Source of the DNA: a virus | Lineage: Duplodnaviria > Heunggongvirae > Uroviricota > Caudoviricetes | DNA length: 15,693 nt | Direction: 5' to 3' (one strand) | Virus record (IMG/VR): IMGVR_UViG_2778261355_000012 | Shown here: in pieces, positions 1 to 14,472 of the stretch | Layout of the letters: the number at the start of each line of letters is the position of its first letter | Position numbering within the stretch: position 1 is the stretch's first letter | The notes under the pieces: generated by a model | The model's database searches: none | Seen by the model: only the letters and a program-made list of their open reading frames with translations | Told to the model about the DNA's origin: nothing | Made by a program: the position numbers and the translations under genes

Positions 1-537
1 TTACTCGTCCAGCAGAATCACTTTGCCGATATACGGCAGATGACGGTAACGCTGTGCGTAATCAATGCCGTAACCCACCACAAACTCATCCGGGATCGAG
101 AAACCGATAAATTCTACCGGGACGTTCACTTCACGACGGGACGGTTTATCCAGCAGCGTACAAATCGCCAGCGACTTCGGTTCGCGCAGGCTTAAGATCT
201 CACGCACTTTCGACAGTGTATTCCCCGAGTCGATGATATCTTCAACAATCAGCACGTCCTTGCCACGGATATCTTCATCCAGATCTTTGAGGATTTTCAC
301 ATCACGGGTGGTGGACATGCCGCTACCGTAGCTGGAGGCGGTCATAAAGTCGACTTCATGAGATACCTGAACTTCACGGCACAGGTCCGCCATAAACATA
401 AATGAGCCACGCAGCAGACCCACCAGCACCATATCGCTGCCGCTGTCTTTGTAACGCTCAGTAATCTGACGACCCAGTTCGGCGATACGCGCTTTAATCT
501 CCGCTTCGGGGATCATTACTTCTACAATATGTTTCAT
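1..537 (-). CDS. hpt: hypoxanthine phosphoribosyltransferase
   Basis: 178-aa product [35 protein letters not shown]...[14 protein letters not shown]...[10 protein letters not shown] matches E. coli Hpt over its full length from memory; includes the PRPP-binding [13 protein letters not shown] motif; ATG at 537-535, TAA at 3-1. Confidence 0.96.
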
Positions 538-1143
538 AATTCACATAACTCACTGATTTTTGTCAGTTAAAAACAAATTCACACGTAGCAATTTATCAAA
601 AGTGATACACCGAATGATATACGGATCGATACACAGCGCCACAATCTCAAAAAAGCACCAGCACAATTAGAAGGCCGCGAGTATACAACATCAGAAACAG
701 GAGAGGGCAAAGCACGTAATAATTTTCGTTTTTCACAAACGCAAAAATTTGGCGAGGCTGGCGGTCCCGGCAACATGAAGCTACAGAGATTTTGATCCCC
801 TGCATGGTGATGATGCCCATACAAGGCTATTTCATTTCAACGGAACCGGTATGACGAACATGATCGCACCTTCTCCCGAAAACGGTGCGACCTCCATAGA
901 GGAAATGCCTATTCAGATCCCCGGTGATTTTCACCATTCAGAATCTGGCGGGTGAGTTTCTCAATTTCCGCAGTTGGTGGAAATTAAACGAATACAGCGA
1001 GTTAGAACAAGGTGACTAATGGTCACTCTGTTGCTGCGTCACCATATTGATGATCCAGCCCTGTAGTCGCGCCACTTTTCCACCAATGGTGGAAAAGCCC
1101 ACAGCAGGCCGTCCAGCCTCCCCCAATGGGGGATTGTGGAAGA

Positions 1144-1468
1144 ATCAACGGGTTAGGCCTTACCAGCAAAAAAGCACATCAACTGTAACGGAAATCGTTA
1201 TGGTTGCTGGTGGGCTAAATCATCGTTATGGTGATGCAGCCATGTAGACGTTCCGGTCTCCTCAAATCGAGGTTTCCGAAAATATCAGTGAGTTAGCGAT
1301 TAAGCTGGCGAGTAATTAAACTGTGAAAATTTCGTAGTTTGTGACTATCTGAAAGATAGTCGGTTGATCCGGCCTCAGCCGTTGGCTGTTCCCGAAAATA
1401 TCAACGGGTTAGGCTGGTTTCCCCGATGTTCGCCGCTGGCGAATTTCGAAAATATCAACCAGTTACCG
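1144..1468. repeat. direct-repeat array: three full and one partial copy of a ~22-bp motif (consensus about CGAAAATATCAACGGGTTAGGC) at the junction between hpt and the island
   Basis: Read directly: atcaacgggttaggc (~1144-1158), ccgaaaatatcagtgagttagcg (~1276-1298), ccgaaaatatcaacgggttaggc (~1392-1414), tcgaaaatatcaaccagttaccg (~1446-1468). An 8-bp-stem palindrome GACTATCT-gaa-AGATAGTC sits between copies at ~1343-1361. Function (integrase arm sites vs packaging/TerS site) is inferred only. Confidence 0.7.
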
Positions 1469-1753
1469 CCGCAACCGCTCCGGCTTCTTCCAGTGGTAAG
1501 TTATTTTTTCCTTCTCCCGATACATCTCCACGCGGCGACGGTATGCCAGCATTTCCAGAACGCGGATCCGTATGTTGCGCATATCCACATCATTAAGCTG
1601 GATACCATTACGGCGCATCACTTCCGCTACAACACGCACATAATTTTCGGCGGTCACGCTGTCCGGCTGCGTGGCCTGTTCGTCATGCTGCTGGCTGATT
1701 CCGGTAACGCGGCGGATTATTTTTAGTAGTTCGGTTTCGCTCATTCTCGTCAT
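1463..1753 (-). CDS. hypothetical protein (96 aa), last gene of the packaging operon
   Basis: ORF overlaps the TerL stop by 4 nt (coupled translation); no motif recognised; its 3' end runs into the repeat array. Confidence 0.45.
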   Translation of the reverse strand: MTRMSETELLKIIRRVTGISQQHDEQATQPDSVTAENYVRVVAEVMRRNGIQLNDVDMRNIRIRVLEMLAYRRRVEMYREKEKITYHWKKPERLRR

Positions 1754-3420
1754 ACCCCATCAAACGCCGCAAGCCGCTCTTTGTGGCTGTCGCTCATATC
1801 AAATGCAAATTCCTCATGCTCTGCCTGGAATGTGCCAAACGCCATCAGCGCCGCAACGCTCGGGTCTATCTTGTTGGATGATTTTTTCTTGTTCGGCTTG
1901 ATATTGGCGTTCGCGTCACTCTGCATCACAACATTACTCATTGACCAGGCCAGCACCGGATCGCCACGATGCACAATCACCTTCCGGTTAACAAAAACTT
2001 CGAACGATTTCGCCGCCGGACTGAAACGAAGGTATGTTTGCGGGAACGGCTCCACCTCAAATCCTGCCCCCTGTAGCTGCGTCCTCAGGTGCGTGGCGTT
2101 CCATGTATCGAAGCCCACCAGCCTGATATTGAAATTCTCTGCATCCGCCATGATGTCATCACGGATACGGTCATAATCAATGCAGTCACCCGGTGTTGTG
2201 CGTATCCAGCCCGCCTTTACCCACTGGCGATAGATGGCGCGGTTTTTATTGGCGGGGTTCTGTAGCTGAAATTCCGGCAGATAGTGACGGGAAACCAGCA
2301 TAATCTTTTTACCGACCGGAAAGGCATAGCACACGCTGGAAATATCGCTGGTTGATGATAAGTCCAGCCCCGCGTAGCACTCCTGACCGTATAAATCCGC
2401 CTCCGCGAACGTTCCGGCGCACTCCGCCCATGCACCGTTACCCATCCACGGTGTAGCCCCCTGACACCAGATATTGAATCGCTTGGTGAGCATTTCCACC
2501 CACTGCGACGGAATACCCCGCGCTTTCTGGATGGTTGAGGCCAGTTTTTCACGATCGACGGAAACATCGATATTGGGATTCGCCTTTATCCACATCGCCG
2601 GCTCGTCAACCTCGCTTTCATCATCCAGCTCGTAAATCAGCACGAACATGGATTCGTTCACCTCTTCACCATCCAGTATCTGGCAGCAATAGTCATAGTG
2701 TTGTTTACAGGCTGAAACAACGTTGCTCCCCGATGTGGTGATGGCAAATAACAGCCCCTCCGGACGCGCCCCCATTCCCAGTTCAAGCGCGGAATAAACC
2801 CCGTTGTCAGGGTGCAGGTGATATTCATCCACAATGGCAAGACTCGGGTTTGTACCTTCAATGGTTGCCGCTTTTGCTGCCAGTGGCTTTAACAGGCTGT
2901 TGGTTTTCGGGTGTATCACCTTGTGTGTCTGAATATTTACCCGCTTTCGTAACGGTCGGGATAAAAGGCACATCTGACGCGCATCATCAAACACGATCCG
3001 CGCCTGATCACGACTCACGGCGGCGGTGTAAATATCCTGCTGCCCGTTTTCCATAACCAGAAACCAGTTAGCCAGGATAGCGGCGACCGTGGATTTGGCA
3101 TTTTTTCGCGGCACTTCAATGAATGCGCTGGTGTATTTGCGCCGTCCGGTGGCCTTAACCTTAAAGCCCAGGATGCACGCAAAGGCGAACTGCTGCCACG
3201 GCTCCAGCTCAATGGGGCTACCGCGCATTGCGCCTTTTACGTGCGGACACACCCTGGAAAAGGCAATAAACCGCTCCACGACCTCCGGATCGAACGTGTA
3301 AAGGGGGTTTTCAAGGTCAGAAAAATACCGTTTAACGGCCTGTTTCAGTCGTTTACAGGCCGTAATTTTGCCGTTTTTTACGCCTTCTGCGTACTCATGC
3401 CAGGCGGTCAAGCTCGTCAT
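1750..3420 (-). CDS. terminase large subunit (TerL)
   Basis: 556-aa product with the overall organisation of phage large terminases (N-terminal ATPase, C-terminal nuclease) by recollection; sits after TerS and HNH; overlaps TerS 3' end. Confidence 0.9.
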   Translation of the reverse strand: MTSLTAWHEYAEGVKNGKITACKRLKQAVKRYFSDLENPLYTFDPEVVERFIAFSRVCPHVKGAMRGSPIELEPWQQFAFACILGFKVKATGRRKYTSAFIEVPRKNAKSTVAAILANWFLVMENGQQDIYTAAVSRDQARIVFDDARQMCLLSRPLRKRVNIQTHKVIHPKTNSLLKPLAAKAATIEGTNPSLAIVDEYHLHPDNGVYSALELGMGARPEGLLFAITTSGSNVVSACKQHYDYCCQILDGEEVNESMFVLIYELDDESEVDEPAMWIKANPNIDVSVDREKLASTIQKARGIPSQWVEMLTKRFNIWCQGATPWMGNGAWAECAGTFAEADLYGQECYAGLDLSSTSDISSVCYAFPVGKKIMLVSRHYLPEFQLQNPANKNRAIYRQWVKAGWIRTTPGDCIDYDRIRDDIMADAENFNIRLVGFDTWNATHLRTQLQGAGFEVEPFPQTYLRFSPAAKSFEVFVNRKVIVHRGDPVLAWSMSNVVMQSDANANIKPNKKKSSNKIDPSVAALMAFGTFQAEHEEFAFDMSDSHKERLAAFDGV

Positions 3421-3751
3421 CTTCCTCTGTTTCCGGTGGATTTCTGCGGCGGCTTACCGGGTCAAAACCCAGCAAAGAAGCCATTTTGATCATTATTCTT
3501 TCAGCGTCAGCCTTTGCGCTCAGGGCGGGGTTTCTGCTCTCGCTGCCCTGACTGTTAACAATGCTGAACCCGCGCGTGGCAAGGTCTTCGACGGCTTTGC
3601 GGTATATGGAGTAGTTAACGCAATACAGCTCCAGATTGCTCCAGTCGGCGGGGGTAAGGTCTTCCCGTCCGGAAAGCTGGCGCGATTTTTCCTTCCACTG
3701 CCTGACCGCGATTTCATCCAGGTAAGCGGGGGCTTTTGGTGGTCTTGCCAT
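3395..3751 (-). CDS. terminase small subunit (P27-family-like TerS)
   Basis: Track ORF 3395..3892 trimmed to internal ATG at 3751 (MARPPKAPAYLDEIAVRQWKEK...), an N-terminus typical of P27-type small terminases; placed immediately upstream of TerL. Confidence 0.7.
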   Translation of the reverse strand: MARPPKAPAYLDEIAVRQWKEKSRQLSGREDLTPADWSNLELYCVNYSIYRKAVEDLATRGFSIVNSQGSESRNPALSAKADAERIMIKMASLLGFDPVSRRRNPPETEEDDELDRLA

Positions 3752-4039
3752 GTTCTTTTTTCGCCCAATTATTTTCAAAAAAATTCCCGTGCACAAAAAT
3801 TTGAGGAGGCGGTCGGTGTCCGGCAGGGACGGTTTCGTCCTGAAAACCACCCCCACCCCCTCTGACGGCCTCACCAGCGATTGCGACAACATTCCATGAT
3901 CTCGCGGTCACGGTCGGTTAATTGCTTCGCTGTGGTGCGTTCTGTGCGCCCTGTCCTGTTGGCTTTGTGCCCTGTCTCCTGTGTCTTCCATAAGTCACGC
4001 TGCCTTATCAGTCCACGTATCAGCCTGGTTTGCTCCTGT
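3752..4039. other. non-coding gap between HNH and TerS with a palindrome GGACGgtttCGTCC (~3827-3840) and a C/G-rich tract ccacccccaccccctc (~3847-3862); candidate cos/packaging site
   Basis: No credible ORF fills the gap (track ORFs here are antisense shadows). Position between HNH and TerS parallels cos placement in HK97-like phages. Inference only. Confidence 0.35.
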
Positions 4040-4480
4040 TCAGTCATCATCGCCATACATCCAGTCGTTACGGTGTGCTGCCCGTTCTTCCTGCTCGCGA
4101 TACATGCCCGCCTTACGGTTCGCTTTCGTGGCGGGATCTTCCCGTGTCGTCTTACGGTTGTGGCACGTCTGGCACAATGCCTGGTGGTTCCACTCAGGCC
4201 AGAAGAGAACATCACCGCCGCCATTGATGGGGATGATGTGATCCACCACAAGAGCTGGCGTATAAATCCCCTTAGCCAGACAACGCACGCATAACGGGTT
4301 TTTGCTCAGGTACAGGGCGCGGTATTTGTCCCACTGTCGGGAATACCCGCGCGCGCGGCGGTGTCCCCGTCTGGCATCCTCTGCACGCCATACAGCCCGT
4401 CTGTGCTCTTCACACTTGCCGGACTTCACGCGCTTATTACAGCCCGGCTCAGTGCATCGCCTTAATGGTTGCCACGGCAT
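4040..4480 (-). CDS. HNH endonuclease (packaging-associated)
   Basis: 146 aa with paired Cys motifs (CTEPGCNKR...C...C...CHNRK) and the His/Asn core (VVDHIIPINGGG...WNHQALCQTCHN) typical of HNH; start overlaps the connector stop (TGATG). Confidence 0.85.
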   Translation of the reverse strand: MPWQPLRRCTEPGCNKRVKSGKCEEHRRAVWRAEDARRGHRRARGYSRQWDKYRALYLSKNPLCVRCLAKGIYTPALVVDHIIPINGGGDVLFWPEWNHQALCQTCHNRKTTREDPATKANRKAGMYREQEERAAHRNDWMYGDDD

Positions 4481-4782
4481 CAGTACACCCCCACATCACG
4501 ATAAACCGACCAGAGCGCAGAAATAGCCATAGGCAGTTCAGACTGCTCCACTGGTGAAACTGCTTCCCTGTTCTCGTACAGGAAAGCGATGTACATCAGG
4601 CAACCAACACGCATTGCCGGGGTAAATTCCAGCCCGTCTTCAAAACGTTTCCCGATATGCTTCTGGCAGGCTTCCAGCGCCGCATCGGTATACATTTTCA
4701 GAAGTTCGCCTTCACCGGATAAATCATCATCAAGTCGAAGATGTGCCCTGACTTCATCAGGTGTAATTCTGGCTTCACTCAT
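4480..4782 (-). CDS. head-tail connector / gp6-like DNA-packaging protein
   Basis: Track ORF trimmed to ATG at 4782 preceded by GGGAG RBS; ~100 aa, MSEARITPDEVRAHLRLDDD... resembles gp6-type head-tail connector N-termini; overlaps portal 3' end. Confidence 0.6.
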   Translation of the reverse strand: MSEARITPDEVRAHLRLDDDLSGEGELLKMYTDAALEACQKHIGKRFEDGLEFTPAMRVGCLMYIAFLYENREAVSPVEQSELPMAISALWSVYRDVGVY

Positions 4783-5989
4783 CTTTTCTCCCTTTAATTT
4801 CCACAGTCTGTTTCCATGCCTGGCTGAACTCATCACCACCTTCACGCGGCGGCATACCCTCGCGTTCGCGAGCTTCGTTCGGATTCATGATCCCGCTCTT
4901 AATCCCTTTCTCATACGTGGCATAACGTTCGGTGGGTGTGGCGCGCAGTAAATCGGCTGAATCAAACTCAACCAGATAACGGGTACCAGGTACGGGAGAA
5001 GTCACCAGCAAAGCGGCCTTGATTTGCTGTTCGAAGTTCGCCAGCCACGGGCGCATTGTCATGGTCAGAAATGCGCGGCTCGCCTCACTGAAATTGCTGT
5101 AGGTGCTGTTGCTGTATTCCTGAAGAAAAATCGGCGACACGTTGAACATCCTGGCGATGTCTTCAATGGAGAAGCGACGGGAGGCCAGCCATTCCGCATC
5201 CTGGTTACTCATCCCCAGCTGCCTGTAATCCATGCCCCCTTCAAGGATTGGCGTTTTTCCGGCATTTTTCGCCCCCTTGTAGCGTTCCAGTGCGTCTAAT
5301 GCCTGTTTACCTTTCACGCCGTCCAGCCATTCACCTGACGTGATAATCCCTGCCGCCATCATGCCATCTTTCATAATGCTGGCTCCGTGACGCTGTTGAG
5401 CAAGGCCAAGCCCCAGCGCCTCACGGCAAATCGTGACGGGGGAACGCCCCAGAAAGCCATCATCCGAGGCATAGCGGAGATGCAGAACTTCTTCCTGTAA
5501 ATACGTGCGCACCGTTCCTGTACAGGGTTCGGTGATGGTATAGCGGTATTTGTGTGTGCCTGTGCGTTCCGGTACAACACACCCCGGCGCATAAGGATGA
5601 AGTGATTTTGGCTGCCCGTCCCGCCCCCACTCAATAACCGCATAGGCGTTACCGTTCAGCAGGCAGTGACGCATCATTGTGCGTTTAAACTGGTAAGGTG
5701 TCAGGCACGAATTAGGCTGCTCATTCAGCAGAATATCTACCGGGTGACTGTCCAGCCATTCCCGCGCCTCTCTGCCCTTATCATTGCGTACCAGATACAG
5801 GTAACACGGCATCGTGGCCACCGCCTCAGCGATGACAGAAACCGCGTTCATCACAGCAGGCAATGATTCAGCCGTCCCGGCAGAAACATATTCTCCGGAT
5901 CCGGTATTTGGTACACCAGACAACGCCAGAAAATCATCAATGGACAGGTTACGCAGATCGCTTTTTTTACGACTAAAAGGCCACCACAT
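4775..5989 (-). CDS. portal protein (HK97-family-like)
   Basis: Track ORF 4775..6079 trimmed to ATG at 5989 (MWWPFSRKK...), directly after the protease stop (TGA-T-ATG); ~400 aa with conserved portal stretches (FSIEDIARMFNVSPIFL, TMTMRPWLANFEQ). Confidence 0.88.
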   Translation of the reverse strand: MWWPFSRKKSDLRNLSIDDFLALSGVPNTGSGEYVSAGTAESLPAVMNAVSVIAEAVATMPCYLYLVRNDKGREAREWLDSHPVDILLNEQPNSCLTPYQFKRTMMRHCLLNGNAYAVIEWGRDGQPKSLHPYAPGCVVPERTGTHKYRYTITEPCTGTVRTYLQEEVLHLRYASDDGFLGRSPVTICREALGLGLAQQRHGASIMKDGMMAAGIITSGEWLDGVKGKQALDALERYKGAKNAGKTPILEGGMDYRQLGMSNQDAEWLASRRFSIEDIARMFNVSPIFLQEYSNSTYSNFSEASRAFLTMTMRPWLANFEQQIKAALLVTSPVPGTRYLVEFDSADLLRATPTERYATYEKGIKSGIMNPNEAREREGMPPREGGDEFSQAWKQTVEIKGRKDE

Positions 5990-5990
5990 A

Positions 5991-6551
5991 TCACAACCCC
6001 GCCAGTTCAGCCCAGCGATGACGATTATTTCCTGCCGGGCGTAATTCAGGGTACTGTGCAAACAACGAACGGTGGGCAATCTCCACGCCGGATTCGGGAT
6101 AAGCAGGCATCGATGTTATCGTGATTTCACGGAGTTCTGCGGCGGTTACAGTACGCAGATACGGTTTTTGCGCGATATTCCACTCCTCGCATAATGCGCG
6201 AAAGCCAAAGCTCATTCCTGTAATATCGCCACGTTCCACCAGCGTAAGCACATCTTTTCCAAGCTGGGTATTTGGCGGTGTCAGTTCAAAACGTAGCCCG
6301 GTGTTATCCTCAGTCAGTACCAGTGAGCCGGATTTGGTACGCCCCAGCAGTCGGGTATAGTCATGCTCATACAGACAGCGCACATCATTACCCGCCGCCA
6401 GATAGTCAGCAAAAGCCCCCGGCGTGAACTGTTCGCGAAACTCGTCCCAGATAATTTCTGAAAGGCTGTTCCAGCGAACGGCATAACCCACCAGTTTTTT
6501 ATCGCTGGCGGTCAGTTCAGATGTACGGATTTCAAAATCGGTGTTTTTCAT
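5991..6551 (-). CDS. prohead protease (HK97 / S78-family-like)
   Basis: Track ORF 5991..6776 trimmed to ATG at 6551 (MKNTDFEIRT...) with GGAG RBS ~9 nt upstream; the upstream extension overlaps the capsid gene. GYAVRWNS...FTPGAF...LYEHD pattern fits prohead proteases. Confidence 0.82.
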   Translation of the reverse strand: MKNTDFEIRTSELTASDKKLVGYAVRWNSLSEIIWDEFREQFTPGAFADYLAAGNDVRCLYEHDYTRLLGRTKSGSLVLTEDNTGLRFELTPPNTQLGKDVLTLVERGDITGMSFGFRALCEEWNIAQKPYLRTVTAAELREITITSMPAYPESGVEIAHRSLFAQYPELRPAGNNRHRWAELAGL

Positions 6552-6570
6552 CGGTGTACTCCATAAAGCT

Positions 6571-6592
6571 GAAAAAGGAGGCCGAAGCCCCC
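6571..6592 (-). terminator. hairpin plus U-tract between capsid and protease genes (attenuator or partial terminator)
   Basis: Minus-strand RNA GGGGGC-UUCG-GCCUCC (one G-U pair) followed by UUUUUC; the protease RBS lies just downstream. Confidence 0.4.
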
Positions 6593-6600
6593 TTTGCTCA

Positions 6601-7746
6601 TTACTTGCCAGCCTGAATTTCCAGAATCTTGATGGCGTTCGAATCCACCACACCACCGCCCAGATATTTCTGGGTATAGATGTTAATGAATCCAGGCTCG
6701 CTGAAATCCGGACGGGTACGCGTACCGGTTTTATGGTCAACGATGAAATAACCGCGCTTAAAGTCACCGACTGCAATCACACCGTCCGGCATAAATTCCA
6801 GATATTCAACCGGAAGCCCCAGCAGAGAATCAGGATCACCAGCCTGTAAACGATCGCGCCAGATGTAATCACCAGTGGCATTTTTCAGTTTTTGTGCGGA
6901 GGCGGCTGTATTTGAGTTCATCACCCATACAGCTTTTTTGCGGTACTTATTGCGCAGCGTAAATTTCAGGTCAATCAGCATATCGGCGCTGAGACTGCCA
7001 GTCACTTTTTTCGTCTGGAGCGTACCGAAAGGACGGGTTTTGTCATTATCCGTAGCGCGCGGGAAAGTCAGGAAACCTTTGGCTTTTTTCTCGCCATCAC
7101 CGGAAACCAGATCCGTTTCTTCGGTATCAACGAAAGTGTCGCCAATTTCAGAAGATAACCAGCCCATAATATCGACTTCGGAAAAATCGATAATTTCCTG
7201 AGTGGTTTTCGGGTAAGCGTAGATCGGATACAGGCGGATACTGACTTCATTCAGTTTTGGGGTTGCCGTCTGGTTACGTGCCGCACCTTCTTCGCCGTGT
7301 CCCACGACCGCACCCCCGGCAGAAACCAGTTGCTTAAATTCATTACTGTGAATGGTTTTAACAGTACAGATTTTACGCATCACCGACTCATCAGAAAGCT
7401 GACGCATAATTTCTCTGTTCAGTTCCGGGATAACCGTATAACCACCATCAGCCGGAACACTGCCGGACAGGTTGCGGGTTTCCCCGGTCAGAATGTAAGA
7501 GCGTAGCTCATTTTTGGTGATTTTATCTTCGACGGGAACACCAGGCTGGTTACGTTCTTCATCAGCCACAGACTCGAGGCGGGAAATTTCTGTGTCGAGG
7601 GAATCGGCTTTTGCACGCAGTTCATCAAACTGTTTGCCTTCGTCATCGGTTAGACTGCGGTTTTCACTGTCGGCTTTTTCCAGCAGGGATCGCATCTGGT
7701 TTTTCAGGGCGGTTTTTTGCTGGCGGAGTTCGATTAATTTCTTCAT
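6601..7746 (-). CDS. major capsid protein (HK97-fold)
   Basis: 381 aa; coiled-coil N-terminal ~100 aa (scaffold/delta-like) followed by a core typical of HK97-family capsids by recollection; followed directly by protease. Confidence 0.88.
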   Translation of the reverse strand: MKKLIELRQQKTALKNQMRSLLEKADSENRSLTDDEGKQFDELRAKADSLDTEISRLESVADEERNQPGVPVEDKITKNELRSYILTGETRNLSGSVPADGGYTVIPELNREIMRQLSDESVMRKICTVKTIHSNEFKQLVSAGGAVVGHGEEGAARNQTATPKLNEVSIRLYPIYAYPKTTQEIIDFSEVDIMGWLSSEIGDTFVDTEETDLVSGDGEKKAKGFLTFPRATDNDKTRPFGTLQTKKVTGSLSADMLIDLKFTLRNKYRKKAVWVMNSNTAASAQKLKNATGDYIWRDRLQAGDPDSLLGLPVEYLEFMPDGVIAVGDFKRGYFIVDHKTGTRTRPDFSEPGFINIYTQKYLGGGVVDSNAIKILEIQAGK

Positions 7747-7983
7747 GAAGGTTTTCTCGCATTGGTTAAGATTCAGGACGTGAAACCAACACGGGGGGAG
7801 CGCCGCCCGACACTCTCGGCATCTCGCAGATCAACCCGGCATCGCGCAGGGGGTCAGGCGGCATTGTGGCGGCTCACGTCTGAGTGCCACACGCCAACAT
7901 ATACATAAAAATCAGTATGTAAACATCAACCAGAATCACCGAACAACCTGGAACAACCACGAACAAATAATTTACAAAACCTG

Positions 7984-8010
7984 AAAAAAGACCCGGAAAA
8001 AATCCGGGCC
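7984..8010 (-). terminator. rho-independent terminator ending the replication operon
   Basis: Minus-strand hairpin CCCGGA-uuuuuu-UCCGGG followed by UCUUUUUU; sits just past the stop of the 82-aa ORF and ahead of the capsid promoter region. Confidence 0.7.
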
Positions 8011-8019
8011 TTTATCGCT

Positions 8020-8268
8020 TTATTGTTTCACTGGCTCCCGCATTCTGCGTCTTATTTTCCACAAATATTCGATCATCGCTTCCACCTGCTCACGGTTGGT
8101 TGCGAAAATTTCCCCGGTCAGTGAGCTACGCAGAAAATCATGATGATCCACAAAAAATAACGCATCGGAAGAAAGCAACCGACGATATTTTTTTGCTGTC
8201 GTGGTTTCCAGATCATCAAAACCATGAAGCTTTTTATGTTGCTGAACTTCTTCGAATGTCACTGGCAT
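8020..8268 (-). CDS. hypothetical protein (82 aa)
   Basis: Start overlaps the 3' end of the FinO-like gene by 10 nt; followed by the terminator; no motif recognised. Confidence 0.45.
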   Translation of the reverse strand: MPVTFEEVQQHKKLHGFDDLETTTAKKYRRLLSSDALFFVDHHDFLRSSLTGEIFATNREQVEAMIEYLWKIRRRMREPVKQ

Positions 8269-8789
8269 GTATCCCCCTTTGCTGCCCGGCGCTGGCGCTT
8301 GTGCTTCTCATTCAGCACCATCAGCCGTGTTTCTGCCTCCTGCTGTTCCTGTGGTGTCACTTCCCCACATGGCTGGCCTTTCAGGTCGTAACGTGCGCCA
8401 CCAGCTATCAGGGCGCGGTAATAGCGCGGAGACTGCGCATAGGATGCCAGCGTCGCACGTAATACCCCCGACCCGAATGCCAGCCCCCTGACGGCGATAT
8501 CCTGCATCAGGTCGTCGAATATCCCCACCTTAAGCGGCTTCGGTGCTTTATGGCTGAATAAGTCAGGCCACATCTCAGTGAGGCGGTTAACGCGTCGGCG
8601 GTTTTTGCGCTGCCTTTTGGTCATATGCTGCCACGGTGTCGCCCCTGTGGGCTTCTGCTGTGCGTTCTGATTGCCGGGTATCACTTTATGCGCCGATGTG
8701 GTTTTATCCTGCTCTTGCGCCGCCTGCGTCGTTTTCTGCGGCGTGCCGTAAATGCCTTTCGGCTTCCGGTTAATGGTCAGCGTTGTCAT
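8259..8789 (-). CDS. ProQ/FinO-domain RNA-binding protein
   Basis: Residues ~70-155 (WPDLFSHKAPKPLKVGIFDDLMQDIA...VLRATLASYAQSPRYYRALIAGGARYDLKGQPCGEVTPQEQ) align by eye with the E. coli ProQ N-terminal domain (FPHCF...PLKIGIFQDL...[35 protein letters not shown]); basic, low-complexity N-terminus. Confidence 0.8.
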   Translation of the reverse strand: MTTLTINRKPKGIYGTPQKTTQAAQEQDKTTSAHKVIPGNQNAQQKPTGATPWQHMTKRQRKNRRRVNRLTEMWPDLFSHKAPKPLKVGIFDDLMQDIAVRGLAFGSGVLRATLASYAQSPRYYRALIAGGARYDLKGQPCGEVTPQEQQEAETRLMVLNEKHKRQRRAAKGDTCQ

Positions 8790-8825
8790 GCCTTCCCCTG
8801 TAATTACTCTGTTCGCTGTTGTGAA

Positions 8826-9251
8826 TTAAAACGGTATGTTATCCCCGTACGGGTCATCGTGCTGGCTTGTCTGTTGTTTTGCCCTGTTCAGTGCGTCAGT
8901 GGCCTGGCCCTGTTGACCTTTTTTGCCGCCCGGTCGCGCCGTTCGCGCACTGATTACGCTGTCTGCAATAACCTGCCAGCCCCGCTGCGTTTCCCCGTTC
9001 TGGCCTGTCCACTGGCTCACCTGCATGTTACCCGCCACGCTCACCAGTTCGCCTTTGTGGTGTTTTGCCAGTGCGTCGGCCTGTCTGCCAAACGCCAGGA
9101 CAGATAACCACATCGTCGCCGTTCCGTCATCTGCCTGGCTGCACGGCAGGGGAACCGCCATACTCGCCATCGCCATTTGTGTCCCTTTGCTGGTGGTCTT
9201 TAACTGCGGGTCAGCCACCAGCCGCCCGTAAGCCGCTATCTGTGCTGTCAT
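8826..9251 (-). CDS. single-stranded DNA-binding protein (SSB)
   Basis: 141 aa with OB-fold SSB pattern (GRLVADPQL...MWLSVLAFGRQA...KGELVSVAGNMQVSQWTGQNGETQRGWQV), Gly/Gln-rich linker and acidic tail ending DNIPF (canonical DDDIPF). Confidence 0.8.
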   Translation of the reverse strand: MTAQIAAYGRLVADPQLKTTSKGTQMAMASMAVPLPCSQADDGTATMWLSVLAFGRQADALAKHHKGELVSVAGNMQVSQWTGQNGETQRGWQVIADSVISARTARPGGKKGQQGQATDALNRAKQQTSQHDDPYGDNIPF

Positions 9252-9493
9252 GCTGTCTGCTCTCCGGTTTTAACGTTGATGGTTGTCACCTGTTCCGCTT
9301 CGGCAATCTCCCGTTCTGTCAGCGTGGCAAAGTTTGCTGCCGCCGTGGTCATGAATGCGCTTATCAGTTCGGGATGTGCTTTTGCGTACCCTTCTCCCGC
9401 GTTGCGGTCGATGATTTTTATCGCCACCCTCAGCCAGTGTTCTGTCAAATCAAGGGCGTGAGATTGTGGTTTTTTTGCGTGCTTCGTTGTCAC
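9248..9493 (-). CDS. hypothetical protein (81 aa, GTG start)
   Basis: GTG start with GAGGT RBS ~8 nt upstream; stop overlaps SSB start; no motif recognised. Confidence 0.45.
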   Translation of the reverse strand: MTTKHAKKPQSHALDLTEHWLRVAIKIIDRNAGEGYAKAHPELISAFMTTAAANFATLTEREIAEAEQVTTINVKTGEQTA

Positions 9494-9540
9494 AGGCTTT
9501 ACCTCACAGCAATAAAATAAAATTTTTGCATTTTAACCCT

Positions 9541-9770
9541 TCACCTGTTCACCTTTTGAGATTTTCCCTTTTTATTCATAATGTTAAGGGGTGAACAGTT
9601 TCACAAAAACTATTCACCAACTGTTCACCACTGTTCACCCTTAAAGCTCAATAAATAATCAAAAAGGTGAACAGTGAATAGTTTGGTGAACAGTTCACAA
9701 ATAACTGTTCACCCTATAATGTACTGATATAAAAGATATTTATCACAGGGTGAACAGTGGTGAACAGTTA
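9541..9770. repeat. iteron field: at least 9 perfect copies of TGTTCACC / GGTGAACA in both orientations plus variants, with an adjacent AT-rich tract; candidate replication origin
   Basis: Read directly: perfect octamers at ~9546, 9590, 9622, 9632, 9666, 9685, 9706, 9749, 9759; AT-rich tataatgtactgatataaaagatatttatc at ~9714-9743. The octamer is the one I recall as the phage P4 alpha-binding type I iteron. Confidence 0.8.
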
Positions 9771-9780
9771 TTCCATAAGT

Positions 9781-11595
9781 TTAATTTTTGCTGTCGTCAT
9801 TTGTGACCGATGCACATGATGGCATCCAGTCTTCTGAATCCTCTGTCAGTGTCACATTTGAACGCAAACCGTGCTTCGTTTTCCGTTTTATATACTCCCT
9901 GCCATATTCCGCCATTGCCCCCGGCATATCTTTACCGAAGCGCGTCAGTGTTACAGGTTTACCGAATCCGTGTGCCCTCATATATGCCAGATAGGCGTGA
10001 TAAAGATACCTGCGCGGACTGAACGGAATAATTTCGGCATTACCCACTAACAGACCATCACACATTACCGACGACATGAGATAGCCACAGAAGTCCACCA
10101 GCGAATCGCCCTCGCGTTTTATCACCAGAGCTTCTTCTGATTTCTGCTGCTCATACAGCAGGCGTTTAGCTTCGTCCTGGTCAGAAAAACGAGTAAGCAG
10201 ATGGCGAATCACAACCGCCAGCTCTCCTTCTATTTTTTCTGCCAGCATGGGGTCGCGCTCGTTCTCCGGTACAACCTCCGAAAAATTGAATATCACCCGA
10301 CGACGTGAGATCCCCCCGCTGCGGTCACTGAATGACATGGCGTTATTGTTCACCGCCAGCACGACCGCCTGAATGCGTGTTGAGTAGGGGGCTTTATGCT
10401 TCGGGTCGATTGCCACCTTGTCACCGCCTGTAATGGCCTTAATTCCTGCGCCATCACCAGCGTAGCGGGTCATATCCGGCATGATAATCAGCGAAAAGCC
10501 AACCACTAACGCGCGTTCCCTTGCATCTTCCAGCGCCTTCATGCTTGCCGATACTGTGTTGGCCTTACCCGCCAGCATGGTGCAAATCTCCGCCATCACG
10601 CTTTTACCACTTCCCCCTGGACCTGTTACCTCAATGAATAACTGCCAGTCGTACCGGTTCGCCAGCACCATGAATAATGCAGCCAGCACGCGATCCGTCT
10701 TGCGGTCATTCTCTGCCACCGAGCGGCGTAACCACTTCCAGAAATTCGGCGCATGTGTTGCCAGCGTTTCCCCCTCTGCTGGTGGGCTGAAAGGTAATTC
10801 ACTGGCAATTAACAACCAGTCGTTTTTGTTATGCTCCCGAAAATTACCTGTTCTGGTATCAAATACCCCGTTACTGAATCCAATCAGGTTACGGGCTGTA
10901 TTCCCCATTACAGGCAAACTTAACTTCATGGTATCGACCGCCGATTTAATGGCGTTCTGCGAATAGCTGATCTCCGCATCAATGAAAATCTGCGCCATAG
11001 CACGCTGTAACTCTTTATCCTGAATCGGCTCCCATACAACGCCGTTGTAATGGTGAACAGTGTCAGAGTCGGCATGAATCGCCAGTTCACCGCCATAATG
11101 TGCCAGGAGAACTTCGCCGCGCTGGCTTGCTCCCATCTGGTTAAGCGCCAGTGGTGCGGCGCTGTCTTCTGTTTTTTTCTTAACAGGAAGCTGAATCACC
11201 AGACCATCAGAAAGATTCTGGCGCTCACGGGCCAGATATTCGCGCCAGTTCTGCACCTCCTGGCCGTGCATACCCTCAGGATAAAAATTTGCATCCTGTA
11301 CGCCTGCCGCCGCCAGCTTCTGACCAATCGCCTTTATCATTACTGGCGCAAGATATCCGGCCCTGAATATGCGCACGGATTTTCTGCCTTCCGGCACAAT
11401 TTGCAGCTTATCCAGTTCGGATAACTGCTGCTCCCCAAGCCACACAGGAGGCTCATTATCTCCGGCCATACGCGCGTCATGTTCCTGCCATTGTTTTGCG
11501 TGTGACCAGGCATCACTACCCGCAAAAATAATGACTTCTGTTTCTTTGTGTTTTATGCCGCGTAACTGCTGTTTTACGTTCGGTGCCAGTTTCAT
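9781..11595 (-). CDS. replication initiator with primase/helicase-type NTPase domain (P4 alpha-like / D5-family)
   Basis: 604 aa; Walker A GPGGSGKS mid-protein; iteron field lies immediately 3' of the gene; start overlaps the upstream 95-aa ORF (ATGA). Confidence 0.8.
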   Translation of the reverse strand: MKLAPNVKQQLRGIKHKETEVIIFAGSDAWSHAKQWQEHDARMAGDNEPPVWLGEQQLSELDKLQIVPEGRKSVRIFRAGYLAPVMIKAIGQKLAAAGVQDANFYPEGMHGQEVQNWREYLARERQNLSDGLVIQLPVKKKTEDSAAPLALNQMGASQRGEVLLAHYGGELAIHADSDTVHHYNGVVWEPIQDKELQRAMAQIFIDAEISYSQNAIKSAVDTMKLSLPVMGNTARNLIGFSNGVFDTRTGNFREHNKNDWLLIASELPFSPPAEGETLATHAPNFWKWLRRSVAENDRKTDRVLAALFMVLANRYDWQLFIEVTGPGGSGKSVMAEICTMLAGKANTVSASMKALEDARERALVVGFSLIIMPDMTRYAGDGAGIKAITGGDKVAIDPKHKAPYSTRIQAVVLAVNNNAMSFSDRSGGISRRRVIFNFSEVVPENERDPMLAEKIEGELAVVIRHLLTRFSDQDEAKRLLYEQQKSEEALVIKREGDSLVDFCGYLMSSVMCDGLLVGNAEIIPFSPRRYLYHAYLAYMRAHGFGKPVTLTRFGKDMPGAMAEYGREYIKRKTKHGLRSNVTLTEDSEDWMPSCASVTNDDSKN

Positions 11596-11879
11596 TTTTT
11601 ACCCCCTGCGACCAGCATTTCACGAATTTTGCGGATATGACTTGCTGCACGTTTCTGATTTACGGCTTTACGATGGCCCACCAGCGTGAAATCACGCCGG
11701 AACTGATAAACAGGCATCACGCAGTCATATTCGTAGCCATCACGGCGGTAAGTGATGCGCCGTTCTGCCACGTCTTTTATCGTTACCGTGCCGCCATAGT
11801 TATCCCGGAAAATATCGCCGGGGCGGATTTCAGGCCGAGCGGGGCCGCTGGCAGTAAAGCCAGAAATTTTCTGTTTCAT
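11592..11879 (-). CDS. hypothetical protein (95 aa)
   Basis: Translationally coupled to the replication gene; no motif recognised. Confidence 0.5.
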   Translation of the reverse strand: MKQKISGFTASGPARPEIRPGDIFRDNYGGTVTIKDVAERRITYRRDGYEYDCVMPVYQFRRDFTLVGHRKAVNQKRAASHIRKIREMLVAGGKK

Positions 11880-11884
11880 GGTTT

Positions 11885-12112
11885 TTATTCCGCGTTTATT
11901 TTTTTATCGTGAATTTCGATCGCTTTATTTAATTCGACGATTACCGTATCGAGTAATGAAATAAACGCACCAGCAAGATTAGATTCACGCTCATCTTCCG
12001 GCGCATCACTTAAACCATCAAGCCAGATAAGAAATATTTGCCTCAAACATTCACTGTTAGTCAGTGCGTTTTCTGCATGGCTCATTGATTTAAAATAACG
12101 GTCATCATGCAT
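11885..12112 (-). CDS. hypothetical protein (75 aa)
   Basis: ATG overlaps the stop of the upstream 67-aa ORF (ATGCATGA); acidic; no motif recognised. Confidence 0.45.
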   Translation of the reverse strand: MHDDRYFKSMSHAENALTNSECLRQIFLIWLDGLSDAPEDERESNLAGAFISLLDTVIVELNKAIEIHDKKINAE

Positions 12113-12308
12113 GGCGCACCCCCTGACGAATACGGGCGGCGAATACCATCACGCAGTCATCAGGAGATTGCTGGCGTGCTTCCTGTTCGCTGGTGGCCTC
12201 AATGGTAATCACGCGCGGTTGTGCCGTGCTCAGGGCGATAAAACGCCAGATGTATTTATTCAGGTTGTACGAGTCCCGCCCTTGCGGGTGTCTGGTATAA
12301 TTTCTCAT
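12105..12308 (-). CDS. hypothetical protein (67 aa), first gene of the replication-side operon
   Basis: Track ORF 12105..13013 trimmed to ATG at 12308 with GAGGT RBS 5 nt upstream; the long N-terminal extension is Ser/Cys-rich and antisense to plus-strand genes. Confidence 0.45.
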   Translation of the reverse strand: MRNYTRHPQGRDSYNLNKYIWRFIALSTAQPRVITIEATSEQEARQQSPDDCVMVFAARIRQGVRHA

Positions 12309-12389
12309 AGCTACCTCGATACTCTCGTTATCGTTGGTGGTTAGACGCCCTGCATGTGTTGCGAGCACTGCGGGGCGTTGCTCTTTTAG

Positions 12390-12435
12390 GTGTATTTCAC
12401 CTTTGCTTTTTAATTTACTCACTGGTGAAATACAC
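12390..12435. promoter_or_regulatory. perfect 12-bp inverted repeat GTGTATTTCACC-N22-GGTGAAATACAC in a divergent promoter region (candidate operator)
   Basis: Read directly; lies in the ~190-bp gap between the minus-strand 67-aa gene start and the plus-strand 59-aa gene start; TATACT -10-like hexamer downstream at ~12466. Confidence 0.5.
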
Positions 12436-12501
12436 TTCAAGCCTTTTTTTATCATTTTTTTTGCGTATACTGACATACACCAATTTTTAGGAGATCCAGA
12501 A

Positions 12502-12681
12502 ATGGCAACTGGTGCAAAGAACGCAAAATCACAAATGACAACTGTCAGAATCCCACATGAAGTAATGGATGATATTGAGCAACTTAAAGAACCTGGCGAA
12601 AGTACCGCTGGTTTTTTAGTTACTGCCGCAAAAGGCGAGATCAAACGCCGCCAGCGTCGCAAGGCCAAAGAGCAGGAGTAA
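12502..12681 (+). CDS. small putative DNA-binding protein (59 aa, possibly ribbon-helix-helix-like)
   Basis: Track ORF 12334..12681 trimmed to ATG at 12502 with AGGAG RBS ~9 nt upstream; MATGAKNAKSQMTTVRIPHEVMDDIEQLKEPGE... then a basic tail; the RHH assignment is a weak guess. Confidence 0.5.
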   Translation: MATGAKNAKSQMTTVRIPHEVMDDIEQLKEPGESTAGFLVTAAKGEIKRRQRRKAKEQE

Positions 12682-12738
12682 CCATCACCAGCGCCGTGGT
12701 GTGAGTAACTACGGCGCATTGCTATGCAGGACAACACA

Positions 12739-12912
12739 ATGACCGATAAAGAATTGACCAAAACATTATCACCGGCACGGAAAAGACGGCGCAGAAAGAT
12801 AGAGCATGAATCAGAAAGATTCGCGCCATGTGCTTTTGCCCTTGAGCAATTCCTTAAAGAGCACAGGAAAAAGCTCTCGTTGCAAACCTTGGAACGAACC
12901 AAATCTGACTGA
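12739..12912 (+). CDS. hypothetical basic protein (57 aa; alternative start 12724)
   Basis: Follows the 59-aa gene on the same strand and is followed by a strong terminator; arginine-rich (ARKRRRRK). Confidence 0.4.
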   Translation: MTDKELTKTLSPARKRRRRKIEHESERFAPCAFALEQFLKEHRKKLSLQTLERTKSD

Positions 12913-12976
12913 TCACATTGCCCACCAGCCAGCAAATCACTATGATGTTCGGGCTTATGTTTAGTGTTTTCCCATT

Positions 12977-13008
12977 GGCGACCGCCCCCGGTCGCCTTTG
13001 TTTTATGT
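12977..13008 (+). terminator. rho-independent terminator after the plus-strand cassette
   Basis: GGCGACCG-cccc-CGGTCGCC perfect 8-bp GC stem followed by TTTGTTTT on the plus strand; prevents read-through antisense into alpA. Confidence 0.7.
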
Positions 13009-13022
13009 GTCATAACTCCCCC

Positions 13023-13307
13023 TTATGCAGCTTTCTTACCGTACGGATTATTGACTTTATCTACAGCAGGTGGGTTACGAACCCACCAAAGCACATCAGA
13101 GAGAAGCCACGCACAGCTATTGCGCCCGAAATGACAACGAGGCGGGAAACGCCCTTCATTTTCCATTTTGAAGCGAGTTGAGCGCGACAGACTGGTAATT
13201 TCCTGGCATTCCTTTTCACGGATACGGCGATCAAATTCAAAACCGTATTCTTCAAGAAGCGCCCGGCGTTGTTCTGGAGTTGGGGGAATGAATGTGGTTT
13301 TTGTCAT
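13023..13307 (-). CDS. alpA: AlpA-family transcriptional regulator (prophage CP4-57-type)
   Basis: Track ORF trimmed to ATG at 13307 with GGAGG RBS; HTH segment EITSLSRSTRFKMENEGRFPP...WLLSDVLWWV matches the AlpA pattern from memory. Confidence 0.8.
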   Translation of the reverse strand: MTKTTFIPPTPEQRRALLEEYGFEFDRRIREKECQEITSLSRSTRFKMENEGRFPPRCHFGRNSCAWLLSDVLWWVRNPPAVDKVNNPYGKKAA

Positions 13308-13389
13308 ATTGCCTCCACTGTATCTATGCTTGCGGAGGCTATTTTGCAATCTTTAATACTGGATTAAAACACAGTAGTAATCATAGAAA

Positions 13390-13422
13390 CATACTGATAA
13401 TGCTTATAAATATATCAGTATG
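13390..13422. promoter_or_regulatory. 10-bp inverted repeat CATACTGATA-N13-TATCAGTATG between the 309-aa gene and alpA
   Basis: Read directly; could be a weak AT-rich terminator for the 309-aa gene or an operator for the alpA promoter. Confidence 0.35.
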
Positions 13423-13444
13423 CTTAGGAGTATATGAGTAAGGC

Positions 13445-14374
13445 TTACTGCGATCTTTCACTCGGCCTCTTATGAGCATTACTTAAAATTGCTGCTATTT
13501 TTGTTTCTGTTTTTATTGGCAATTCACTATTAATGAACCAATCAGGTCTGGCGATCAACTCACGAGCCCAAGCAGAATAGTTAATCGTTCCATCGTTTTT
13601 TCTGCAGGTCTCATTAAAAGTATTTTGTTGCTCTTCTTTAAAACGCATAGCAACCATTAAAATTTGCTCTCGATTTCTTGCATGTCTTTCAGCAGAATGG
13701 TGCACAATTTCATTGCCATTCATCTTGTGAGGTTCTACAGATTCAAAATTATCTGTTAGCGTAAAATAATCGCCACCACAGTCAAGAAGTCGCCTTATAT
13801 CATGAGCGGTAATCCACAAGTCATTTATAGAAATATTATTCTTTAATATTTGATCGTCTTCTTCATCATAATCACTATCTTCACCAACCATTAAAAGTTG
13901 TACGGCAGGATTATCAGTTTCTGGATGACACGGGGTTAATTCAAAACCACTTAGGGAATACTCTCCAAAATTTTGTAGCTCTTCCAGCCCACTCCAAAGA
14001 CGCCACAATCCATAAGCCCTACCAATAGAGCTAAAGCATCCGTTTTCTGAGTCTTGACCGAATAAAGGCGCGTGTATAGTTTCATCTGTCTCCTCATTAT
14101 AATTGTATCTGAAAAGATGAAATCTGGAGTATTCCGTAATATTGTTCCCCATCAGTGATGTGGTCGATTTTGCATTTCTGGTATCAAACCAAGCAGTTGC
14201 AGACTCGCTATCAGTATTCATATATAAAACAGCGCGAGCATCAAATAAATTTAGGCATAAAGCTATTTTTTTAGTAACACCTAAATTCACGAGATCGCTA
14301 ATCTCGCAACCCAGCAATCTTGATGCACGTTCAATGTTGCAATACTGAAAAGGAATTTTAATGTCGTTAGCCAT
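13445..14374 (-). CDS. hypothetical protein (309 aa), AT-rich cargo gene between int and alpA
   Basis: Long clean ORF with GAGGG RBS 6 nt upstream; markedly lower GC than flanking genes (by eye); acidic central stretch EDSDYDEEDDQ; no domain recognised. Confidence 0.7.
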   Translation of the reverse strand: MANDIKIPFQYCNIERASRLLGCEISDLVNLGVTKKIALCLNLFDARAVLYMNTDSESATAWFDTRNAKSTTSLMGNNITEYSRFHLFRYNYNEETDETIHAPLFGQDSENGCFSSIGRAYGLWRLWSGLEELQNFGEYSLSGFELTPCHPETDNPAVQLLMVGEDSDYDEEDDQILKNNISINDLWITAHDIRRLLDCGGDYFTLTDNFESVEPHKMNGNEIVHHSAERHARNREQILMVAMRFKEEQQNTFNETCRKNDGTINYSAWARELIARPDWFINSELPIKTETKIAAILSNAHKRPSERSQ

Positions 14375-14472
14375 TGCGCTACCCTCAACGCCCTAAATAC
14401 TTTACGAGCCAGGCGGGTAGGGTTTCCCGCTTTTCGGTTGGCCGACCTATGCCCGTAATATCAGTTTAACCT

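Follow-up and report, generated by a model that had tools for sequence, protein, structure and literature searches.

A capsid-forming PICI-type satellite at the 5′ end of hpt in Escherichia coli

Many P4-like integrases target the 3′ ends of tRNA genes, so an island that carries such an integrase and lies beside a protein-coding gene, with no tRNA in view, raises a simple question: what did it use as its integration site? The window (i.e., the whole 15,693-nt stretch of DNA that was analysed) poses this question, as it runs from hpt at position 1 (minus strand) to an integrase whose start codon is at position 15693. An earlier note, made from these letters only, held that the island was inserted upstream of hpt rather than at a tRNA, and that either the target was unusual or a tRNA or att site lay beyond the integrase end of the window. 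The answer is the beginning of the hpt reading frame itself, and not intergenic DNA alone. The following sections describe the island, its junctions, the likely position of strand exchange and the effects that integration may have on hpt.

The island and its gene content

The window matches the chromosome of E. coli ATCC 43886 (NZ_CP024256.1) at 100% identity. The gene order in this source genome is can, hpt, the element and then gcd, with gcd starting 398 bp past the integrase start. The island is 15.3 kb in size, and all substantial genes across 1463–15693 are on the minus strand (Table 1).

Table 1. Features of the window and of the sequence just beyond it. Positions are those of the window unless marked L001, which is the 41.8-kb locus made of the window plus 20 kb beyond each end.
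Feature	Position	Strand	Details
hpt, hypoxanthine phosphoribosyltransferase	1..537	-	Intact 178-aa ORF; Pfam Pribosyltran
hpt-side att core, CTTCTACAATATGTTTCATA	519..538		CTTCTACA-A-TATGTTTCATA; 19/20 repeat of the far copy (family D3)
Probable strand-exchange (overlap) segment, CTTCTACA	519..526		Minus strand T-GTA-GAA-G, hpt codons 5-7; placed by SNP phasing
Element-derived base	527		A here, G in every empty site; codon 4 changes from ACT (Thr) to ATT (Ile)
Element-supplied hpt leader (hpt-proximal att arm)	539..720	-	Replaces native leader, promoter and CRP site
Palindrome CACTGATTTTTGTCAGT	551..567		ACTGATTAAAATCAGT in sister lineages; 13-29 bp outside the core
Three tandem 12-nt predicted arm-type sites, hpt-proximal arm	600..635	+	AAGTGATACACC GAATGATATACG GATCGATACACA
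Candidate outward promoter for hpt	680..710	-	-10 TATACT at 685-680; -35 TTGCCC at 710-705; 19-nt spacer
Non-coding element tail	955..1468	+	At least five repeat units, each a variable-sequence hairpin followed by GAAAATATCAACGGGTTAG
Last element ORF, 93 aa	1463..1744	-	phrog_1561, a function-unknown family
Packaging and capsid module	1750..7746	-	TerL, TerS (Terminase_4), small ORF, HNH, head-tail connector, portal, prohead protease, major capsid protein; from annotation and Pfam
Replication and regulation module	8020..13307	-	ProQ/FinO-family protein, SSB, D5-type primase, DUF4222, Icd-like protein, AlpA
Putative origin with iterons	9590-9713		Repeat family D6; adjoins the D5-type primase
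int-alpA RNA motif (Rfam RF02996)	14391..14457	-	55.2 bits (gathering score 35.8), E = 2.6e-9
Tyrosine integrase, 406 aa	14473..15693	-	GTG start at the window's final base; P4-like architecture
Three tandem 12-nt repeats, int-proximal arm	L001 35716-35751		AAGTGATACACC AAGTGATACACC ACTCGATACTAG; 36-nt block of family D4 at L001 35713-35748
gcd-side att core, CTTCTACA-G-TATGTTTCATA	L001 35868-35887		Equals window 15868-15887, outside the window

An integrase, alpA, a primase and packaging genes within 15.3 kb are the gene content and satellite size of a PICI. All seven cf-PICI proteins (capsid, protease, portal, connector, HNH, TerS and TerL) score above the Pfam gathering threshold, and no tail or lysis genes were found in the 15.3 kb by annotation or in the list of ORFs, some of which are small, hypothetical and uncharacterised. 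TerL and the capsid protein are 93% and 74% identical, respectively, to those of the cf-PICI of O157:H7 strain 86-24. We therefore classify the island as a phage satellite of the capsid-forming PICI (cf-PICI) type.

The cf-PICI prototype EcCIEDL933, as described in a preprint, shares the int/alpA/primase/capsid/packaging gene set with this element and likewise has no tail genes (bioRxiv 10.1101/2022.09.08.507074). The two differ in location: the O157:H7 cf-PICI adjoins phoQ, whereas the window's element sits at hpt. A 309-aa ORF adjoins int. PHROGs places both this ORF and the 93-aa last ORF in function-unknown families only, and neither gave a match with PADLOC or Pfam.

Junctions and occupancy of the hpt site

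Where the element is absent, hpt and gcd lie side by side in divergent orientation, as the earlier note had stated for E. coli K-12, and 205 bp separate them in the element-free genome compared. Base 538, a single base beyond the start codon of hpt, is where the match between the window and element-free genomes ends. The flanks were aligned to an island-free genome, the check which that note proposed, and the resulting three-way alignment of attB, attL and attR defines a 20-bp direct repeat at both junctions, CTTCTACA[A/G]TATGTTTCATA, with one mismatch. The gcd-side copy is outside the window, 175–194 nt beyond its last base. Read along the sense strand of hpt, the core is T-ATG-AAA-CAT-A(C/T)T-GTA-GAA-G, i.e., the start codon plus codons 2–7, and its shared form is TATGAAACATA-N-TGTAGAAG. 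The flanks are those of an hpt PICI: direct repeats with TATGAAACATA at the hpt start codon, and hpt on one side.

Because the att repeat covers hpt codons 1–7, the insertion point is inside the 5′ end of hpt. The earlier description of an insertion upstream of hpt was therefore correct in naming a non-tRNA target and needs to be shifted into the coding sequence. Likewise, the hpt-gcd interval was the right place, but the integration is not purely intergenic, with the crossover probably falling in hpt codons 5–7. Positions 539–1462, previously taken as a spacer between hpt and the island, are island DNA, consisting of the hpt-proximal att arm and the non-coding tail. The 20-bp core can be used to define predicted island boundaries exactly, and the attP junction of the circular form would read ...AATTTTTG-CTTCTACA-A-TATGTTTCATA-ATTCAC.... 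A palindrome similar to the one outside the hpt-side core also adjoins the core in a relative at the fis site (L007).

According to ARAGORN, neither the window nor the 41.8-kb locus contains a tRNA or tmRNA. An Rfam scan of the window at E ≤ 1 also gave no tRNA, returning only the int-alpA RNA and spurious microRNA matches (AT-rich origin region), with zero matches within 538–1468. An island that targets a tRNA or tmRNA has the tRNA gene or a 3′ fragment of it at the junction, and the junctions here are made of hpt codons and leader. No tRNA is present at either junction. Of the two things suspected beyond the integrase end, the att site is there, and the tRNA is not found anywhere in the 41.8 kb. 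Immediately past the integrase, where a tRNA or tmRNA gene would have pointed to a different target, the sequence is that of the native leader of hpt, followed by gcd.

The integrase is P4-like, as was supposed from the letters. Its Pfam domains all score above the cut-off (Arm-DNA-bind_3 at 59.9 bits, Phage_int_M at 29.2 and Phage_integrase at 57.8), which gives the three-domain arrangement of an N-terminal arm-binding domain, a central SAM-like domain and a C-terminal catalytic domain. It is terminal in the element. Two other lineages at the hpt site have integrases with 84% and 63% identity to it, and an integrase at a fis site shows 56% identity. We take the cross-species distribution from the literature, as our own integrase scan of species-representative genomes returned a single locus, which has the 56%-identical integrase and a fis-type site.

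P4-like integrases have arm-type repeats in both attP arms, and such repeats are present here by sequence. The 36-nt blocks in the hpt-proximal and int-proximal arms are 83% identical to each other (family D4), and they lie approximately 78–113 and 117–152 bp from the crossover. The exact sequence AGTGATACACC has three copies in the 41.8 kb, which are in the arms only and on one strand only. In the lineage with the 63%-identical integrase, ATTGATACAC occurs twice in each arm. We infer that the integrase contacts its DNA at these repeats.

The site is occupied in a small fraction of E. coli. Among 5,426 complete genomes, 71 (~1.3%) have an element-type arm adjoining hpt, and an intact attB is missing in an equal number (71/5,426). 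At least three integrase lineages are found at the site with the same junctions. Of the 71 genomes, 9 carry the window's integrase at ≥99% nucleotide identity and 19 a relative with ~80% nucleotide identity, and the remaining ~43 have more diverged arms. Two of the 19 were opened, one being a cf-PICI interrupted by ISApl1 and IS1 and the other a satellite with neither capsid nor terminase genes. One of the ~43 was also opened (L008), and it is a 13-kb satellite with a 63%-identical integrase, a P2-family capsid, an ogr/Delta-like gene, a toprim primase and MazEF. The hpt site is therefore used by satellites with at least three kinds of gene content (cf-PICI, capsid/terminase-less and P2-family-capsid). 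Near-identical copies of the element with intact att sites are present in unrelated strains from humans, pigs and chicken, which indicates recent horizontal spread as judged by sequence comparison.

Position of strand exchange and alternative explanations

We consider it very probable that the island is a cf-PICI of the published hpt PICI group and that a P4-like tyrosine integrase inserted it via attP x attB recombination at the hpt start. The integrase would recombine the element's attP with an attB that spans the start of hpt, and strand exchange in TGTAGAAG would then swap all DNA 5′ of that segment for element DNA. Codons 1–4, including the ATG, would be exchanged in this way, and so would the ribosome-binding region, the promoter and the CRP site that hpt has in common with gcd. 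The 5′ parts native to hpt would stay beside gcd, and the hpt ORF would be kept intact with a Thr4Ile change. This model draws on observed junctions, the direct repeat, SNP phasing, arm-type repeats, integrase domains, gene content and population frequency. We found no evidence against it, and its weak points are confined to the exact overlap, the integrase's arm contacts, the promoter and the expression of hpt.

Strand exchange could instead be placed in the 11-bp block TATGAAACATA, which includes the hpt ATG. Integration would then be purely intergenic, and the difference at codon 4 would be an unrelated polymorphism. The block is an exact 11-bp repeat at both junctions, and it is the one reported by TIGER; however, by the paper's own account, TIGER is unable to place a crossover inside an identity block (PMC10111431). 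Exchange in this block also predicts the host allele at codon 4 on the hpt side, but every integrant seen has the element allele there (Ile in two lineages, Tyr in the third). At position 527, the element allele is always on the hpt side and the host allele always on the gcd side, both in the three lineages examined and in the published E. coli junctions. We used a 77-nt empty site carrying the A allele as a probe against the 5,426 complete E. coli genomes, and this gave zero perfect full-length matches, with every full-length match having exactly one mismatch, so the Ile allele is absent from full-length empty attB in this set. At the protein level, Hpt is WP_000680691.1 in 3/3 opened element-bearing genomes that have the window's integrase or its 84% relative, and WP_000683335.1 in an empty-site genome. 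In the third lineage (63%-identical integrase), the hpt side reads CATTACTTCTACA-TA-ATGTTTCAT (Thr4Tyr) and the gcd side CATTACTTCTACA-GT-ATGTTTCAT.

Since codon 4 on the hpt side is element-derived, exchange would have occurred on the hpt-body side of codon 4, and since attP-attB identity in the window's lineage ends at 518/519, it would have occurred within CTTCTACA in that lineage. Phased in this way, strand exchange most likely lies in TGTAGAAG (hpt codons 5–7) rather than in TATGAAACATA, and we regard a purely intergenic crossover as very unlikely. Published Salmonella junctions add detail. The fourth base of TGT[T/A]GAAG is found in both reciprocal arrangements, the promoter side having A and the hpt side T in Sen34381, with the reverse in Sen8380 and Sen8693; the codon-4 base never changes sides in the published junctions (PMC10111431 supplement). 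Taken alone, these junctions suggest that the T/A base is inside an overlap of ~7 bp and that codon 4 is outside it. An Ile or Tyr in place of Thr at hpt codon 4 can serve as a simple marker of occupancy.

Two further explanations concern the target and the nature of the insert. The original target could have been a tRNA or tmRNA gene that is beyond the window or has since been deleted, as many P4-like integrases use tRNA 3′ ends and as the window, which ends right at the first codon of int, leaves the far junction out of view. Against this, the 41.8 kb around the element holds zero tRNA or tmRNA genes, joining the two flanks exactly restores the continuous hpt-gcd interval seen in element-free genomes, and the same junctions recur in at least three integrase lineages, so we give a lost or distant tRNA target practically no chance. 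Alternatively, the insert could be no functional satellite but a decayed HK97-like prophage remnant which became fixed at hpt: capsid, protease, portal, HNH and terminase genes of HK97 type are present, and tail and lysis genes are missing. However, its layout is that of a cf-PICI (int, int-alpA RNA, AlpA, Icd-like protein, D5 primase and iteron origin, then capsid and packaging genes), and all of its ORFs are intact. The 93% identity of TerL to that of the O157:H7 cf-PICI and the near-identical copies with intact att sites in unrelated human, pig and chicken strains also count against decay, making a prophage remnant most improbable.

Relation to known satellites and possible consequences for hpt

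The hpt site is already known (PMC10111431). Williams and colleagues (2023) describe 49 satellites “in the hpt gene” as a new PICI subfamily, with members in E. coli, Salmonella enterica and Xenorhabdus (PMC10111431). Because these published elements use the same site and non-tRNA targets are common in Gram-negative PICIs, the view that the target is unusual can be dropped. Reference E. coli PICIs in the supplement of that paper target phoQ, tqsA, clpS-cspD, rcnR-thiM, yicC and fis, and a cf-PICI preprint gives six E. coli attB sites, with hpt absent from its main text (bioRxiv 10.1101/2022.09.08.507074). As published, the hpt PICIs resemble the window in target gene, identity block (TATGAAACATA), terminal integrase, size (15–16 kb) and E. 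coli host, and their hpt-side junction, ...CATAtTGTAGAAG, is also the same (PMC10111431). The window's hpt-proximal arm, however, is unlike the arm in the published E. coli hpt-PICI alignments examined, which resemble the CFS3292 lineage instead (PMC10111431). The integrase of that lineage is 84% identical to the window's at the amino acid level.

The fis PICIs and helper-embedded PICIs have related integrases and a similar attP geometry, with co-oriented doubled motifs at distances of ~80 and ~130 bp from the centre (PMC10111431). TGTATTGC serves as the arm motif in these elements, compared with TGATACAC in the window, and the 3′ end of fis or prophage late genes is the target, whereas the window's element targets the 5′ end of hpt. 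Replacement of a gene's 5′ end, as opposed to its 3′ end at icd or fis, is the less common feature here.

Phage 21 and e14 at icd are similar to the window's element in that recombination occurs inside a housekeeping gene and attP provides a substitute end that keeps the ORF intact. Phage 21 and e14, however, replace the 3′ end of their target, for which a few C-terminal codons and a terminator suffice. The window's element replaces the 5′ end, so unlike phage 21 and e14 it must also supply the signals for starting translation and transcription. SpyCIM1 of Streptococcus pyogenes, a PICI-like island at the 5′ end of mutL, silences its target and acts as an excision-dependent switch. Both SpyCIM1 and the window's element are at the 5′ end of a housekeeping gene, but the latter restores the hpt ORF and brings a plausible promoter.

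What this analysis adds is base-level junctions in ATCC 43886, a better-supported crossover, arm-type repeats, occupancy in E. coli and a promoter-replacement proposal. The crossover in TGTAGAAG, the arm repeats and the promoter replacement were worked out here and may already be contained in the figures of PMC10111431. The main value is for annotation: where an island beside hpt has a P4-like integrase and a tRNA is absent, the island is an ordinary satellite of the hpt site and not an anomaly.

The hpt gene of the window is a chimera. Codons 8–178 are chromosomal, codons 1–4 are element-derived and codons 5–7 are the shared crossover segment, giving an Hpt that is 177/178 identical to that of an element-free strain, with Thr4Ile as the sole difference. 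The older, longer K-12 start of hpt (MVRDMKH...) is unusable here: the upstream ATG is directly followed by TGA, which supports the 178-aa annotation.

A single CRP site is common to gcd and hpt (PMC3105977). In the source genome of the window, this site (TGTGATCGTCATCACA) remains with gcd, 15.3 kb from hpt. The leader that the element supplies in its place is homologous in three element lineages (alignment A2). We also tried reading this leader as a diverged copy of the native one, but the best local alignment, GTG(A)ATTTGTTTTTAA, was reached by 26/1000 shuffles and is too weak to support that reading.

In a consensus scan of 1–1800, no promoter was called on the minus strand in the interval from the last ORF to hpt. 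The candidate promoter in Table 1 comes from a looser scan together with positional conservation: a -10-like hexamer recurs in four lineages (TATACT, TATAAT, TATACT and TACAAT) and lies at -148 to -151 relative to the ATG of hpt. The -35 of the candidate is poor and its spacer is 19 nt, and the hexamer of the third lineage is within a hairpin. Read-through into hpt is also possible, as hpt and the late operon point the same way and the stretch between them has no convincing terminator. Transcription of hpt is thus presumably either from a promoter in the element's hpt-proximal arm or via read-through from the late operon.

A broader proposal is that integration rewires the housekeeping gene hpt and, separately, that the tail hairpins with their GAAAATATCAACGGGTTAG units are a functional element which has not been described before; we put this forward as a speculation that is probably not correct. 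If it were true, hpt would be cut off from the shared CRP site and placed under a satellite promoter, directly downstream of the late capsid/terminase operon. Purine salvage would then be CRP-independent, and read-through could boost it upon satellite induction. Thr4Ile or Thr4Tyr would mark past or present occupancy. Integrants at the hpt site would in any case offer a natural test of how hpt is regulated without its CRP site.

The units of the non-coding tail could serve in packaging, RNA stability or protein binding. To see whether the tail is a lambda-type cos site, the cosN sequence GGGCGGCGACCT was searched for in the window and in all loci and gave no match. When the units are folded, hairpins form at a consistent position with mixed z-scores (-5.9 to +0.7), and we make no structural claim from them. 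The final unit overlaps the stop codon of the last ORF. The tail has mosaic matches in 1,117 E. coli genomes, and the two matches inspected were both in satellites at other att sites. Units with GAAAATATCAACGGGTTAG were present in all four of the related satellites that we inspected, which occupy three different att sites.

Start codon of hpt and the palindrome beside the att core

The older K-12 annotation of hpt begins at an in-frame ATG further upstream (MVRDMKH...). Strains that carry the element have ATG-TGA there instead (window 538-560, minus strand), so translation of hpt must begin with the ATG at 537-535, which independently supports the 178-aa gene model.

The hpt-proximal arm of the element carries the palindrome CACTGATTTTTGTCAGT, which reads ACTGATTAAAATCAGT in the sister lineages. 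In the fis-site relative, whose integrase is 56% identical to that of the window, a palindrome of almost the same sequence, AACTGATTAAAATCAGTT, lies directly against the core (L007 about 3800-3825). The palindrome of the hpt arm could be a protein-binding site common to both elements, or it could have been left over from an ancestral attP of the fis type.

Features of the element and of other hpt-site satellites
Feature	Location	Strand	Remarks
Repeat units of the non-coding tail	window 955-1468	+	predicted hairpin and conserved box
Palindrome CACTGATTTTTGTCAGT	window 551-567		hpt-proximal arm, 13-29 bp outside att core
Two 29-nt palindromic repeats GGTGAACAGTTTCACAAAAACTATTCACC	window 9590-9713		95 bp apart
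ProQ/FinO-family RNA-binding protein gene	window 8259-8789	-	satellite gene
309-aa ORF	window 13445-14374	-	phrog_7144; low GC (0.37-0.42); between int and alpA
int-alpA RNA motif	window 14391-14457	-	Rfam RF02996, 55.2 bits, E = 2.6e-9
ISApl1, IS1A	L004 2551-3525 and 14162-14859		sister cf-PICI at hpt, E. coli CFS3292
Different 13-kb satellite	L008 19069-32000		hpt site, E. coli ST131 strain 2019_APHA

Non-coding repeats

Past the last ORF lies a non-coding tail of 0.9 kb that holds at least five repeat units, each a predicted hairpin with a stem of variable sequence followed by a conserved box resembling GAAAATATCAACGGGTTAG; the final unit extends over the stop codon of this last ORF, which encodes 93 aa. 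Units of the GAAAATATCAACGGGTTAG type also occur in the CFS3292 hpt element (L004 4039-4056) and in the phoQ and clpS satellites (L005 8930-9380, L006 9130-9390), and parts of the tail are matched by 1,117 E. coli genomes. The tail has no match in Rfam and lacks the lambda cosN. Possible roles for the units are a packaging site, an mRNA 3' stabiliser, or a protein-binding array.

Downstream of the primase gene, the GGTGAACAGTTTCACAAAAACTATTCACC repeats sit in a gap that is rich in AT (GC 0.39), and this region is probably the satellite's replication origin. Plant microRNA matches that Rfam returned here were spurious.

Cargo and other satellites at hpt

The int-alpA RNA motif lies between the integrase gene and the ORF that follows it, whose 309-aa product has no match in Pfam or PADLOC. 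The position of this ORF, between int and alpA, is annotated differently in the two sister elements examined, with two DUF6387 ORFs in CFS3292 (L004) and a shorter hypothetical ORF in the other (L003).

The satellite at hpt in strain 2019_APHA encodes a P2-family major capsid protein, an ogr/Delta-like protein, a toprim primase, and a MazEF toxin-antitoxin pair, and there Thr4 of Hpt becomes Tyr, not Ile. Insertion sequences have entered the CFS3292 cf-PICI, with IS1A lying within its replication region and ISApl1, the insertion sequence that mobilises mcr-1, within its non-coding tail.
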